Origin: Promethearchaeota archaeon
GTDB taxonomy: Archaea > Asgardarchaeota > Lokiarchaeia > Sigyniarchaeales > SOKP01
DNA length: 46,856 nt
NCBI GenBank assembly: GCA_016839745.1
Contig: JAEOTS010000131.1
Location: 1 to 46,856, forward strand
Reading direction: 5' to 3'
Below are positions 34,869 to 40,893 of the stretch, in pieces; the first letter of the stretch is position 1; each line of letters opens with the position of its first letter. The translations under genes and the position numbers were made by a program. The notes beneath the pieces were generated by a model. It did no database searches and was not told the DNA's origin. It saw nothing but the letters and a program-made list of their open reading frames with translations.

Positions 34869-36248
34869 CTACTTTATTTCATTTAGAAACTTTTTTGTGC
34901 CAGTTTCTATATAGGCGCCACATAGAGGACTAAAACACATAAACGGTTCATACCCACCCTCATTTATATACATTTCTAAGGGAAATAAGTAACCTATCCA
35001 ATCTTGAGAATTTTGGAAAATTATTGTATTCTCTTCTGAAGTTGGAGCTTCTTGTATTATATTTCTTCCCATTTCTTCAAATAATTCACCTGGTATCGTT
35101 ACTAAACCGTAAGTATTACCATCCGATGCTGTAAATTTTATAAATTGAACTAAAGTTTTTCCATAATTCTTTAAATGTTTCCGTTCGATTGTGAAGAATG
35201 GGAAATTAACATACTTCTCATCAAATTTAGCTATTTTAAACAAGAAGTATTTCTTTATCAACCACTTTAATTTATTTGAGAACCATACCTTTGAGTAGTA
35301 TTTAGCATCTTTCTGAGGAATTAAAAATCTCCGTGTATATACATCAACATCCATATTGGTATAGTAATTTTCTTCAGGAATAGAATTTGCTAATTTTAAG
35401 GCTTCTTCACCAATAGTATACCCAATTTTTTTTGTATGCTCATAAGTTCCCAGCTGGTCATAAGAAAGAGTTTTATCCTTGTCAATTTTGTCCAAATTTG
35501 TCCCAGATGTCGTTATAGGATTCAAATCTCCGGAAGGACCATTGAAATAAATTGATTTAATTTTATTATTAGTTAATTCATCTATTTTAGAAATTACTCT
35601 TCCAGGGAAATCGGCAGATAATTTATTATTCTGAAAAGATAAAGTAGTTGGATGGCAAGCGTAATTTATAATGATACCAATCAAGCTATTATCTACTATT
35701 CTTTTAAAAGATATAATTCCTAAATCTGGTAAAACTTTTCTCGTAGGCCATCTTCGATTAAGAACTATATCAGGATTAAATTTTTCTTTTTTCCAAGCGA
35801 TTTTACATGGCTCTAAATCCTTAAATAATTTCTTTACCATTCTTACTATTCTATCAGTCATCCAAACAATAAAATCATCGTTTTTATTATCAGCAAACAT
35901 AACTCCTTTTATAAAAGCCGATGTTCCACCAGGAAAGTAAAATTCTCCTGTAAGATCAAATGAAGAATGGGTGTGAGTAGCATGTATTACTATTGCATTT
36001 GATTTTAAAGGCTTATATTCCGAAATCAGTTTCTTTTTTATATATTCTACAATTGAAAGGGGTAATTTTAAAATATCAACTGAAATCACAAGTAAGTTAG
36101 TATTTTTATTATTTTGGGTTATCAATACACCATAAGCATGAATATCATCTAACTTTCCTAAGCAAGGATCTTTACGAGCATAACCCGCCATAGGTTTACC
36201 TATGTAATCCTTTGGTGTAATTTTTATCTTACCAAACGCAACATTCAT
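34869..36248 (-). CDS. Neutral/alkaline ceramidase-like amidohydrolase
   Basis: ITP..GKPMAGY, HATHTHS, NYACHPT, SADFPG, GPSGDLNP, PGELF, GY...GGYE. Confidence 0.8.
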   Translation of the reverse strand: MNVAFGKIKITPKDYIGKPMAGYARKDPCLGKLDDIHAYGVLITQNNKNTNLLVISVDILKLPLSIVEYIKKKLISEYKPLKSNAIVIHATHTHSSFDLTGEFYFPGGTSAFIKGVMFADNKNDDFIVWMTDRIVRMVKKLFKDLEPCKIAWKKEKFNPDIVLNRRWPTRKVLPDLGIISFKRIVDNSLIGIIINYACHPTTLSFQNNKLSADFPGRVISKIDELTNNKIKSIYFNGPSGDLNPITTSGTNLDKIDKDKTLSYDQLGTYEHTKKIGYTIGEEALKLANSIPEENYYTNMDVDVYTRRFLIPQKDAKYYSKVWFSNKLKWLIKKYFLFKIAKFDEKYVNFPFFTIERKHLKNYGKTLVQFIKFTASDGNTYGLVTIPGELFEEMGRNIIQEAPTSEENTIIFQNSQDWIGYLFPLEMYINEGGYEPFMCFSPLCGAYIETGTKKFLNEIK

Positions 36249-36397: not shown

Positions 36398-36691
36398 ATG
36401 TCACTGAATAAATTAGGTATATTAGGTATGGTAGGCACGATTTCCAATTATAAACAAGGCCGCCACACTCTACACCCAAAGCACTGTATAATTGTTTTTC
36501 CCAATATTAAGAATAGAAAAGAAGCAAATAAATTAATAGGTAGAACCGTAGTATGGATAAGTTCTACAGGAAAAGAATTGAAAGGAACAATAACGCGTGC
36601 TCATGGCAACAACGGTGCTATTAGAGCCCATTTCAAAAAAGCTGGTGTACCGGGTCAAGCACTGGGAACTAAAGTGAAAATTATAAAATAA
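36398..36691 (+). CDS. rpl35ae: 50S ribosomal protein L35Ae (eL33)
   Basis: YKQGRHT, LIGRTVVW, GTITRAHGNNGAIRAHF, PGQALG. Confidence 0.93.
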   Translation: MSLNKLGILGMVGTISNYKQGRHTLHPKHCIIVFPNIKNRKEANKLIGRTVVWISSTGKELKGTITRAHGNNGAIRAHFKKAGVPGQALGTKVKIIK

Positions 36692-36850: not shown

Positions 36851-38956
36851 ATGTCGGAGCAACACTTCCAAATCTGCCGGTTCTGCCAGCGAAATGTAAA
36901 ATTGGCTTATTATTGTGAGGAATGTGGAACCAGTTGTTGTTCTGATTGTTTACATGAAGAAAAAATTGATTCTTATCTTTGTCAAGATTGTAATTCTAAA
37001 AATATAATCGTCCCAGAATCTGGTAATAAGAGAGCTTGCAAAGATTGCGGAGCAGAAAATATAGTCAGATCTAATCAACTCTTAAAATCTTGCCCTAAGT
37101 GTCACTCTCATCAAATAATAAACATCTATGAGAAAAAAGAAGACCTAGAAAAAATATTTATGGAATTAATCAAAAATTCAAGATCATTTATAGATCCGTT
37201 AAGAGATTTACTAAACGCTCTATATACGTTAAAACAAAAAATTCTAGATGCAAGAGCTCCACCTGTTAAATGTTTTCATTATCCTACTATGGAATTAGAT
37301 TTATTAGCCCTCTTTAAATTATTTATCTACGCAAAGGAAACTCTTATTGAGAAGATTCGCAATTTTGTCCAGCACTTATCAATCAACAAAGAATATTTTT
37401 TTGATATCTACACTCAGCAGAATTCTAATATACGAATTATTGAAGACATTCTTGAGAACTTGAACAGAAGCTATAATTCAATAAAGGATTTTATTGAGAA
37501 TAATGTAAATACCATAGATACTAGCATAGTAAATATTTCAAAGAATTTAGTTTTCATCGACAAGATTACTTTTTATTTCAAAAACTATATTAAATTCCTC
37601 AATTTGGCAGAAGAAGAAAAGCCAGTTTATGCAATATACGCTAAATTAGCTAATGGACTTAATACGCAGGACAAATACAAAAAAAATAAAGGAATTCTTT
37701 TTATAACCAATTTTGACTTATCTTTTGTCCATGAACACGGAAAGCGAAAGAAAAAGCAAGAAGGTATTTTTAAAGCACCTGTAAAGGATTTAACGAAAGT
37801 CCAAATAAGAGGGAAATTGTTTAAAAAACTTTATATTGAATTCCCTTATGGGAGATATGAATTTACGCTTCCCCCAAATTCTATATCGAGAGTATTAGAT
37901 TATCTCTTACTCGCCAGAAGTTTTGATGAGACTATTATTTATGATAAATTGGCTGCTAAGAAACTATATAATATCGAAATCGATTTGAGTGATATCTCAA
38001 ACTATATTGAAGAAGCTATAAATTCCTTCTTTAGTTTAAAATGCCAATATAATAATATTAATTCGAATAATAAAATGGCTGAGTTTAATGTCGCATCATC
38101 GTTGATCAACCAAAATCAGAATAACTTGCCTAATAGAACTCCATTCCAGACTCAAAGCCAAATTATGAATCCTTACAATAATAATATTCCCTTTCCTCTT
38201 TATCAAAACTATAAATACACACCCGAGAATCCAATGCTTTATCAAAATAACATGAGAATTCCTAATCCAAGGATGGGTCAAATCCAAACTCCTGACGATT
38301 TAAATTATTACGGTAACGCAATGAGACAATATTTACCTCCCAATTATAACCAAAATGACTTTTTCTTACAAAATTTTTACGAAACCAACAGGATTCAGAA
38401 CTATGAGCCTAAACGATTTAATAGTGGTTTTGGCAATAATATCTCTGACATCGATGAAAAAAACCTGCTGATGAGAAAATTGGAACAACTACAGAGACAT
38501 GATAAATCCTTCCCTCCTCTAAATGGAATACATAACTCTAATGACTTTTTAACCGATCCTGCTTATTATAACTATAAACAAAAAGATAGAAATATGCCGC
38601 ATTACCGAGAATATTCAAGGAATCACCTTTCGGAATTATTTAGCCGTGATTATGGTTCTAATCATCCAGGCGAAAGCTCTAGCTATCATTCAAAGAAACA
38701 AAGTAAAACAAGACGCAAGAAAATGTTTGACTTGGATAAAGAGAAATATAGTCTAGAGGAAACTTTAAAAGCATTGGACTCTAAATTTGAATCCGGAGAT
38801 ATTTCTGAAATTGATTATTTTAAAAATTTTAAGAATTTACAAAAGGAAATATACATAATTGAAAAAAACATAGAAGCCCTAGACTCTGACATGGAAGATG
38901 AAGAATTTTTAAGAAGTTCAGCTAAAGAATTTGATAGAAAAAGATATTACACTTAA
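36851..38956 (+). CDS. Multidomain ESCRT-I-like protein: Zn-finger cluster, coiled coil, PH(GLUE/GRAM)-like domain, low-complexity region, steadiness box
   Basis: N-terminal CRFC/CEEC/CSDC/CQDC/CKDC/CPKC; LAEEEKPV...KGILFITNFDLSF...KKLYIEF PH-like segment; C-terminal EKYSLEETLKALDSKFESGDISEIDYFKNFKNLQKEIY resembles the TSG101 steadiness box. Confidence 0.7.
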   Translation: MSEQHFQICRFCQRNVKLAYYCEECGTSCCSDCLHEEKIDSYLCQDCNSKNIIVPESGNKRACKDCGAENIVRSNQLLKSCPKCHSHQIINIYEKKEDLEKIFMELIKNSRSFIDPLRDLLNALYTLKQKILDARAPPVKCFHYPTMELDLLALFKLFIYAKETLIEKIRNFVQHLSINKEYFFDIYTQQNSNIRIIEDILENLNRSYNSIKDFIENNVNTIDTSIVNISKNLVFIDKITFYFKNYIKFLNLAEEEKPVYAIYAKLANGLNTQDKYKKNKGILFITNFDLSFVHEHGKRKKKQEGIFKAPVKDLTKVQIRGKLFKKLYIEFPYGRYEFTLPPNSISRVLDYLLLARSFDETIIYDKLAAKKLYNIEIDLSDISNYIEEAINSFFSLKCQYNNINSNNKMAEFNVASSLINQNQNNLPNRTPFQTQSQIMNPYNNNIPFPLYQNYKYTPENPMLYQNNMRIPNPRMGQIQTPDDLNYYGNAMRQYLPPNYNQNDFFLQNFYETNRIQNYEPKRFNSGFGNNISDIDEKNLLMRKLEQLQRHDKSFPPLNGIHNSNDFLTDPAYYNYKQKDRNMPHYREYSRNHLSELFSRDYGSNHPGESSSYHSKKQSKTRRKKMFDLDKEKYSLEETLKALDSKFESGDISEIDYFKNFKNLQKEIYIIEKNIEALDSDMEDEEFLRSSAKEFDRKRYYT

Positions 38957-38990
38957 AACCTCTCTATACTGTTCATCCAGTCTGAAAATA

Positions 38991-39650
38991 TTAGCTACCT
39001 TCTAACTCTTTTCTTAATTTATCTATCTCGTCTTCTAGTTTTGCTTTTGTTCTTATTTCAGGTTCTTCTTCTATCTCGTCAAACTCTGAAATGTAGGCAA
39101 GTTCATCATCCGGTACTTCTGGCATTTGTCCGCCTTGTTCTAAAAGCATTTCCGTCTCAAGTTGGTTTAATTCGTCAGTTACATCAATTGCTAAATCAAT
39201 TTCTGGATCTCCCGCAAGAATTTCAGCAGACTCTTCTATTTCTGCAACATATTCTTCTGAATCTTCTGCAATTTCAGCGATCTTAGTGGGAGCGGCTTTA
39301 CTAGCGATATCTTGTAATTCATCTCTAATTCCGCCCATTAAATCTCCTGTCATTGAAATCATACGGCCTTCATCAATTGCTTCGATCTGGCGTTCTATCT
39401 TAGCCCTAATGTTGTTCGCGCGATCTACCTTCATCTGATACTGTTTATGTTGAATAAGATAGTTTTTAGCTCTGTTTCTCTCTCCTCTCTTTATTGCTAT
39501 TTTAGCGTTCTTTCTTGCAATCTCTGCTCTTTTATTATATGTTTTATTTGCTAACGCGATTTTTCTAATGTGAGCCTTTGCTTTAATTACAAGCTCCTCT
39601 TTTTCTTTATTTTTCCTAGGAAAAAGTTTTCCTTTTAATTTCGCACACAC
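38991..39650 (-). CDS. ESCRT-III Snf7-family protein (Vps20/32/60-like)
   Basis: Basic N-terminal helical hairpin (AKIAIKRGERNRAKNYL), acidic C-terminal half, DVTDELNQLE, MIM2-like MPEVP, terminal helix LEDEIDKLRKEL. Confidence 0.88.
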   Translation of the reverse strand: MCAKLKGKLFPRKNKEKEELVIKAKAHIRKIALANKTYNKRAEIARKNAKIAIKRGERNRAKNYLIQHKQYQMKVDRANNIRAKIERQIEAIDEGRMISMTGDLMGGIRDELQDIASKAAPTKIAEIAEDSEEYVAEIEESAEILAGDPEIDLAIDVTDELNQLETEMLLEQGGQMPEVPDDELAYISEFDEIEEEPEIRTKAKLEDEIDKLRKELEGS

Positions 39651-39789: not shown

Positions 39790-40893
39790 ATGAAAAAAAT
39801 AATTTTAAATTTCGAGAAAAAAACAGATAATTTTAAAGCTTTAATACAAGAAGCTTTGAACATGAATCTCCTTAATATTTTGCTCTCTAAAGAGACTTAT
39901 CCCGAGTTAAAAAATATTGAACGTATTAATACTTTTACTAAAGATACCGAACTGCCTGTTAAAAATTTAATATTTAAAAATCTTGAAAATCTCAAAAGCA
40001 TTATCAAATTTGAAGCAAAAAGAGGAATTATTTTAGAATTAACGACCAAAGCGGATGAACAAAAAGTGATAGAGCTTTCAAAAATTAACGAAGTTGATTT
40101 TATAATTGTATCAGCAAAAGATTGGAAAATTATACCCTTTGAGAATCTTATTGCAAAAATGCATACTAATGATACAGAACTAATTGCCTCGGTTGAGAAC
40201 TTAAAAGAAGCGGAATTAATGTTAAAAACCCTTGAAATCGGCACAGATGGAGTATTAATTACTCCAATAGAAGTCGATGACATCATTAAATTGAAGAAAT
40301 TGTTGGTAAGTGGATACGATATTGATTTAGCAAGAGCAAAAGTTATCGATATACAAAATATTCCCGAAAGCGAAAGAGTGTGTGTTGATACTACTTCATT
40401 ATTAAGTTATGGTGAGGGGATGCTTATTGGAAGCACTGCAAAAGGATTTGCTTTAGTGCATGCTGAGGTATTCGAAACTCAATTTGTTTCCTCAAGACCT
40501 TTCAGAGTTAATGCAGGGGATGTTTCCGCATATATTTTAGTTCCAAGCGATACTAAAGATGAAATATATCAAACGAAATATTTAAGCGAATTAAAAGGGG
40601 GAGATCGAGTTATTGTTGTAAAAACTAATGGTGAGGCGCGAAATATCACAGTAGGTAGAGTTAAGATTGAGACGCGCCCTATGCTAAGATTAGAATTAGA
40701 AATTGATAAGCAAGGTAAAAAAGTTAAAATAAATTATATCGGGCAAAATGCAGAAACGATTCGATTAGTTAACTCTGATGGTGATCCTGTTTCCATTGTA
40801 GATATTAAGGTTGGAGACGAAGTTTTAGTCCACATCGGTCCTGGCGCAACTCATTTTGGTACAAAAATTGATGAAACTATTGTTGAAAAATAA
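39790..40893 (+). CDS. 3-dehydroquinate synthase II (archaeal aroB')
   Basis: DWKIIPFENLIA, LEIGTDGV, RVCVDT, SRPFRVNAG, YLSEL, VGRVKIETRP, QNAETIRL, ATHFG..IDETIVEK. Confidence 0.95.
   Translation: MKKIILNFEKKTDNFKALIQEALNMNLLNILLSKETYPELKNIERINTFTKDTELPVKNLIFKNLENLKSIIKFEAKRGIILELTTKADEQKVIELSKINEVDFIIVSAKDWKIIPFENLIAKMHTNDTELIASVENLKEAELMLKTLEIGTDGVLITPIEVDDIIKLKKLLVSGYDIDLARAKVIDIQNIPESERVCVDTTSLLSYGEGMLIGSTAKGFALVHAEVFETQFVSSRPFRVNAGDVSAYILVPSDTKDEIYQTKYLSELKGGDRVIVVKTNGEARNITVGRVKIETRPMLRLELEIDKQGKKVKINYIGQNAETIRLVNSDGDPVSIVDIKVGDEVLVHIGPGATHFGTKIDETIVEK

Follow-up and report, generated by a model that had tools for sequence, protein, structure and literature searches.

The Asgard protein family Znr_PH_CC_SB, also written Znr_CC_PH_SB (asCOG cog.011556), was described by Makarova et al. 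(2024, mBio, PMC10936438) as combining three zinc ribbons, a PH domain, a coiled coil and a steadiness box (SB); it is absent from eukaryotes and was probably ancestral in Asgard archaea. [quoted passage not shown] A 2023 preprint had already labelled the family a steadiness/Vps23-box asCOG, and no experimental study of it was found in the literature. Our analysis concerns a member encoded in a 46,856-nucleotide (nt) stretch of DNA from a Promethearchaeota archaeon of the Lokiarchaeia (contig JAEOTS010000131.1 of assembly GCA_016839745.1, positions 1 to 46,856 of the forward strand), which is called the window here. The gene, termed the adaptor gene for the role proposed below, encodes a protein of 701 amino acids (aa), P0001, and faces an ESCRT-III gene on the opposite strand. 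P0001 is the Lokiarchaeial orthologue of Znr_CC_PH_SB, and its family was thus already known.

For Lokiarchaeum GC14_75, Table S2 of the published study gives the gene order L35Ae, cog.011556 (650 aa), MetE, Vps20 (minus strand) and 3-dehydroquinate synthase (PMC10936438). The order is the same in the window, namely L35Ae, adaptor, convergent Vps20-type ESCRT-III and dehydroquinate synthase, and P0001 agrees with the GC14_75 protein As_004-p_01543 in domain set, in domain order and in the restriction of its relatives to Asgard archaea. The two loci differ in that MetE lies between the adaptor (650 aa) and Vps20 in GC14_75, whereas in the window the adaptor (701 aa) and the convergent ESCRT-III reading frame are separated by 34 nt from stop to stop. 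All parts that define Znr_CC_PH_SB were found in P0001 (three CxxC-pair sites, a helical region, a PH domain and a steadiness box), and orthology with As_004-p_01543 is drawn from the published gene order together with a gap of ~1.1 kb in two loci of the genus g12, one of which (L034) holds a MetE-like reading frame. The sequence-only reading of the window had implied that this adaptor architecture was new, which did not hold, since the same architecture, inference and locus are given by Makarova et al. (2024, PMC10936438). Its description of the protein was accurate throughout, and the six CxxC pairs, the helices, the PH segment, the basic loop, the linker, the C-terminus and the 34-nt spacing all lie where it had placed them. 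More than 250 full-length homologues of P0001 (50-93% identity) are present in Lokiarchaeial metagenome-assembled genomes (MAGs), and in a library of 1.8 billion protein representatives the family forms 132 clusters at 50% identity. At E<=1e-5 the family profile found a match in 361 of 400 Asgard genomes; most Asgard families include strong matches, and some show weak, partial matches alone.

At the C-terminus, where the sequence-only reading had proposed a steadiness-box hairpin, the sequence evidence is diagnostic of such a box. The family profile, searched against the PDB, retrieved the yeast Vps23 core before all other chains (2p22_A, E = 2.1e-4; 2f66_A, 4.4e-4; 2caz_A, 1.3e-3), followed by VPS37B and TSG101 (E = 0.035) and Vps28-N (0.065), and it aligns to the Vps23 steadiness box in a single ungapped register of 57 residues with 19% identity. 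The Pfam model Vps23_core (PF09454) matched aa 623-669 of P0001 with 16.5 bits (E = 0.008), which is below the gathering threshold of 26.8; in 16 of 52 family members it matched at E<0.01, with 22.7 bits as the best score. Furthermore, the nine best PDB matches of the hairpin in Foldseek are all ESCRT-I core chains, with a root-mean-square deviation (rmsd) of 0.6 Å over 57 columns for Vps23-C (2f6m_C) and of 0.6-0.8 Å to Vps23 overall. A phmmer search with the C-terminus against the 1.8-billion-protein library found P0248, an Asgard protein of 80 aa that scores above the Vps23_core cut-off, along with a Vps23-like protein with a UEV domain plus hairpin (P0250) and a short protein with a PH domain plus hairpin (P0223). 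The steadiness-box hairpin is common to P0001 and the eukaryotic ESCRT-I core (Vps23/TSG101, Vps37 and Vps28; PDB 2p22, 2f66, 2caz and 6vme), but the Lokiarchaeial protein has neither UEV domain nor PTAP motif, its Pfam score stays under the gathering threshold, and it carries N-terminal zinc fingers and a PH domain, which occur in no eukaryotic ESCRT-I subunit. The lack of a UEV domain had been noted before and was borne out, with no Pfam match to UEV or UQ_con in P0001; in Asgard archaea, proteins with a UEV domain and a hairpin are encoded by genes of their own (P0250; L065:907-1704). A search of the same genome with PF05743 gave no UEV match, but control genomes gave none either. The genome also encodes, on contig C115 (L074:95-1495), a second protein with a steadiness-box-like C-terminus (466 aa; C-terminal family profile, E = 7e-10), the N-terminal ~350 aa of which have no Pfam match.

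Evolution has kept the adaptor gene linked to an ESCRT-III gene, here one of B type. Sixty loci were examined; the related genomes are not independent, so the counts describe persistence and are not a statistical test. In all 29 other loci of the same genus or family that were fetched with the window locus, an opposite-strand ESCRT-IIIB gene follows the adaptor, directly in 27 and beyond an insert of ~1.1 kb in two (L034 and L038 of genus g12), the reading frame in the insert of L034 being MetE-like. Conservation of the adjacency, which the sequence-only reading had left to relatives to decide, extends far beyond the genus and is no local accident: of the 16 Asgard families sampled that were informative, 12 have an ESCRT-III gene at a distance of up to 5 kb from the family member (f1, f3, f4, f10, f11, f19, f20, f21, f26, f28, f30 and f31), while our own estimate of the chance expectation, with two such genes per 3.5-Mb genome, is ~0.6%. 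No ESCRT-III gene was found within 8 kb in f6, f7, f13 and f18, and f2 was uninformative for this count. In the tree, the linked ESCRT-III falls outside the B clade in f31 and f20 and within it otherwise. In f31 (L053-L055), the adaptor has an A-clade ESCRT-III gene directly convergent with it; in the other families where such a gene was placed, it is of the B clade. None of the three outcomes named by the sequence-only reading as speaking against it (a generic C-terminus, a middle domain that is not a PH fold, an adjacency not conserved in relatives) was found.

L35Ae lies upstream of the adaptor in loci of f1, f3 and f4, and the position of dehydroquinate synthase is likewise kept in relatives. 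The adaptor, IIIB and IIIA genes stand in direct succession in f11, f19 and f30, and the same order is found in f21 and f28 with 2-4 kb of other sequence in between; in several other Asgard families the adaptor, ESCRT-III and the Vps4/Vps25/Vps22 cluster are still together. Because of the adaptor-IIIB-IIIA order in these five families, the joint arrangement is apparently the older state, from which the Lokiarchaeial pair seems to have split off.

The neighbouring gene product matches Pfam Snf7 with 38.3 bits (E = 1.4e-9, threshold 27.3) and, over aa 5-217, PDB chain 9fn1_U, 'Vps20/32/60-like protein (ESCRT-III)', with E = 3e-86; 9FN1 is cited in the cryo-EM paper on Lokiarchaeota ESCRT-III filaments (Melnikov et al., 2025, PMC11791191). 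The match to this Loki CHMP4-7 protein (ESCRT-IIIB) is full-length and both are of the B-type clade, although they come from different genera. In the tree of ESCRT-III proteins from the sampled loci there are two clades with 100/100 support, and the window gene falls in the B clade. Pfam identified a bare Snf7 domain in it and no winged helix. By Souza et al. (2025, PMC11804906), B-type ESCRT-III subunits are described as initiating remodelling in Asgard archaea and eukaryotes. Two Snf7 genes were found in the genome, the other being an ESCRT-IIIA gene beside Vps4, Vps25 and Vps22 on contig C35, which agrees with the earlier suggestion that the pair in the window stands apart from the main ESCRT/Vps4 cluster. 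Vps28 is encoded on contig C66 of the same genome. Directly upstream of Vps28 and in the same direction lies a gene whose 305-aa product has a zinc ribbon at its N-terminus (L009:3429-4346) and may be another Asgard-specific ESCRT-I/II component.

The N-terminal part of P0001 (aa 1-400) was modelled with AlphaFold2 from an alignment of 66 sequences (pLDDT 92.9, pTM 0.81), and the model consists of a small beta zinc module (aa 1-91), helices (aa 92-250), seven strands and a helix (aa 258-356) and more helices up to aa 399. In an exhaustive structural comparison with 48,161 PDB representatives, the top 50 matches were all of the PH superfold and covered model residues ~235-363, which upholds the PH fold earlier proposed for the middle domain. 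The best of them include Trio, Lam6 and MTMR2, all scoring above GLUE. On the single sequence, Pfam gave a sub-threshold PH-like model at aa 274-332; several relatives pass bPH_3 (up to 28.6 bits, cut-off 23), and six match GRAM. When aa 1-400 were searched with Foldseek, tandem DH/PH domains of RhoGEF proteins were ranked first (E ~3e-6). A DH-PH RhoGEF was judged unlikely: the Foldseek matches had template modelling (TM) scores of 0.22-0.31 and rmsd values of 17-27 Å, the VIA low-rmsd alignment was limited to the PH domain and the preceding helix, and alignments of 200 residues had an rmsd of 8-20 Å. Because of the low TM scores, the high rmsd and the limited VIA alignments, the match may be read as driven by the PH domain and not by a DH domain in the model.

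Six CxxC pairs make up the zinc module, starting at aa 9, 22, 30, 44, 63 and 81, and all 12 cysteines stay unchanged across alignments of 52 and of 66 members, with identities to the query down to ~20%. Among the 52 members scanned, the module was matched by the Pfam models zf-B_box (9 members), ANCHR-like_BBOX (5) and Zn_Ribbon_TF (4), the best of these exceeding its cut-off. The family profile likewise matched B-box chains in the PDB (TIF1beta 6o5k_A, E = 0.007) as well as zinc ribbons of RPABC4 and MCM. Because B-box models cover the first eight cysteines and TFIIB-type ribbons the last four, the module appears better described as a B-box-like double site of the cross-brace type plus a ribbon than as separate ribbons, which refines the published zinc-ribbon description without conflict. 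The four helices that follow (aa 92-113, 115-135, 147-178 and 191-245) are modelled with pLDDT 94-98, and R135 is invariant among family members.

The disordered linker of ~215 aa is variable apart from the short motifs NRIQNYxP, LLMRKLEQ and NHLSxLF, which are kept in Lokiarchaeia. A motif at the extreme C-terminus, FDxKxY[YF][TS], is also conserved among Lokiarchaeial members (motif span 38350-38953). These short motifs are candidate partner-binding peptides. PPNY in the linker is kept among close relatives only, and no P[ST]xP motif of the PTAP type occurs in the 701-aa protein. In distant Asgard members the open frames are ~490-530 aa long and the N-terminal and hairpin matches stand close together, so the long linker is probably a Lokiarchaeial expansion. 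A search of the protein against NCBIfam gave no useful match, and phmmer with the single protein against the PDB returned noise only. The coordinates of all features are collected in Table 1.

Table 1. Features of the adaptor locus, with positions in the window.
Feature	Position (nt)	Strand	Basis or remarks
Ribosomal protein L35Ae gene, upstream synteny anchor	36398..36691	+	Pfam Ribosomal_L35Ae, E 6e-16
Znr_CC_PH_SB family gene (P0001), 701 aa	36851..38956	+	Open reading frame
Cys12 zinc module (aa 9-84)	36875..37102	+	B-box-like double-zinc part (first 8 Cys), then zinc ribbon (last 4 Cys)
Helical region (aa 92-250), 'CC' of the family name	37124..37600	+	Four long helices
PH-superfold domain (aa 258-356)	37622..37918	+	Confident AlphaFold2 model; conserved basic loop GKRKKKQ, aa 297-303
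N/Q/P/Y-rich low-complexity linker (aa 405-620)	38063..38710	+	Composition, per-column conservation, alignment
Steadiness-box-type helical hairpin (aa 609-699)	38675..38947	+	Structure model; Vps23-aligned core aa 623-669, nt 38717-38857
ESCRT-IIIB gene (Vps20/32/60-type Snf7 protein), 219 aa, GTG start	38991..39650	-	Pfam Snf7; PDB 9fn1_U
3-Dehydroquinate synthase II gene, downstream synteny anchor	39790..40893	+	Pfam DHQS, E 3e-103

We consider it quite probable that P0001, as an orthologue of Znr_CC_PH_SB, serves the ESCRT pathway as an adaptor near the membrane, genetically tied to ESCRT-IIIB. The protein would be tethered to an anionic membrane surface by its PH domain and the conserved basic loop of that domain (GxxKKK), and the zinc module would bind either a cargo or a partner, ubiquitin being one possibility. 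The C-terminal hairpin would pack with the hairpins of Vps28, of an SB-bearing Vps22 and of other SB proteins, such as the SB-like protein of contig C115, into an ESCRT-I-like headpiece, and assembly of this headpiece would place the B-type ESCRT-III, the polymer-starting subunit, at the site. In Lokiarchaeia this would proceed from an adaptor/ESCRT-IIIB pair separated from the ESCRT-IIIA/Vps4/Vps25/Vps22 cluster. That the zinc module binds ubiquitin and that the adjacent ESCRT-III is recruited directly are inferred steps of this proposal.

Another way to read the locus starts from CdvA, the recruiter of CdvB in Thermoproteota, which has in common with the Asgard protein an SB-related hairpin, the adjacency to an ESCRT-III gene and a presumed membrane tethering. 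The protein would then bind the membrane and nucleate ESCRT-IIIB via its hairpin or its conserved tail, with no part for ESCRT-I or ESCRT-II, and the two genes would be an autonomous module, for example in division or membrane repair. The tail-to-tail pairing conserved in at least 12 Asgard families allows such a module, and a Pfam match to the CdvA coiled-coil model, sub-threshold at E = 0.036, covers aa 620-674. We nevertheless regard this as unlikely. CdvA has a PRC barrel and a partner with a winged helix, whereas no PRC barrel was detected in P0001 by Pfam, the putative membrane element of the Asgard protein being the PH domain, and the Asgard ESCRT-IIIB lacks here the winged helix through which CdvB is bound by CdvA; additionally, the hairpin profile scores Vps23, Vps37 and Vps28 above anything else in the PDB, and in structure CdvA matches no better than unrelated hairpins do. 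If true, the autonomous module would correspond in Asgard archaea to CdvA-CdvB and represent the most ancient level of ESCRT targeting, to which the ubiquitin/UEV/Vps28 layer was added later.

A role on the ESCRT-II side, with a zinc and PH head for membrane and ubiquitin comparable to the GLUE region of Vps36 and a hairpin docking on the SB of Asgard Vps22, draws some support from genus g63, where a fusion joins the N-terminal module to EAP30 winged helices. It is nonetheless quite unlikely, given that Trio, Lam6 and MTMR2 outscore GLUE as matches of the PH domain, that Pfam detected no EAP30 in P0001, that the EAP30 fusion occurs in one of 85 genera sampled, and that the fused winged helices are nearer to Vps22/SNF8 than to Vps36. 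The architectures differ too: in Vps36/EAP45 (GLUE split-PH, with NZF in yeast; 2dx5, 2j9u) the zinc is inserted in the PH domain, whereas in the Asgard protein the zinc module precedes it, and Vps36 has EAP30 winged helices, which the 701-aa protein lacks and the rare g63 relative alone possesses. That P0001 is a zinc-finger coiled-coil protein outside the ESCRT pathway, with a generic hairpin and a meaningless adjacency to ESCRT-III, could be argued from the Pfam matches on P0001 itself, all below curated cut-offs, and from the many unrelated folds that helical hairpins match; but the ESCRT-III linkage persists across deeply diverged families, the profile matches are specific to ESCRT-I core chains (E 2e-4) and one lineage has the module fused to an ESCRT-II core, which makes this explanation highly improbable.

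The g63 variant deserves description in its own right. In all three genomes of this genus (family f26, Asgard archaea with small genomes), EAP30 winged helices replace the steadiness box and give a Vps36-like plan (protein P0209; L065:7995-9800 on contig C138 of genome G298, L071 and L072), and each of the three genomes also encodes a separate Vps22 of 248 aa. In the literature, Asgard archaea are described as being without Vps36. Because its winged helices are nearer to Vps22 than to Vps36, and because it was seen in one genus of 85, the EAP30 fusion is probably a late, independent event. In G298, the ESCRT genes are adjoined by genes for a fusion of a longin domain with an Arf-like small GTPase and for a VTT-domain membrane protein (L065:6059-6916 and L065:3963-4805), both being genes of the membrane-trafficking type.

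The host genome is a 3.5-Mb MAG of 192 contigs with 89% completeness, and the G+C content of the window is ~30% and even along its length. Neither an inverted repeat nor a terminator-like hairpin was detected in the 34-nt spacer. Upstream of the adaptor, an open reading frame of 459 aa on the minus strand (34869-36248) has an N-terminus resembling neutral/alkaline ceramidase (PF04734, 30.5 bits, cut-off 32.1) and is a conserved neighbour within the genus. A putative archaeal enzyme of this type may merit attention.

To our knowledge, Asgard archaea lack ESCRT-0, Vps36 and Vps37. The family Znr_CC_PH_SB bears on how ESCRT machinery reaches membranes in these archaeal relatives of eukaryotes, as the most evident candidate for a membrane-binding head that is otherwise missing. 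Both the family and the idea of a membrane head are already in print, and the locus in the window adds detail only, namely a quantified, phylum-wide linkage to ESCRT-III (mostly of B type), a high-confidence model of the zinc, helical and PH regions and a refinement of the zinc module. The family is a good target for experiments.

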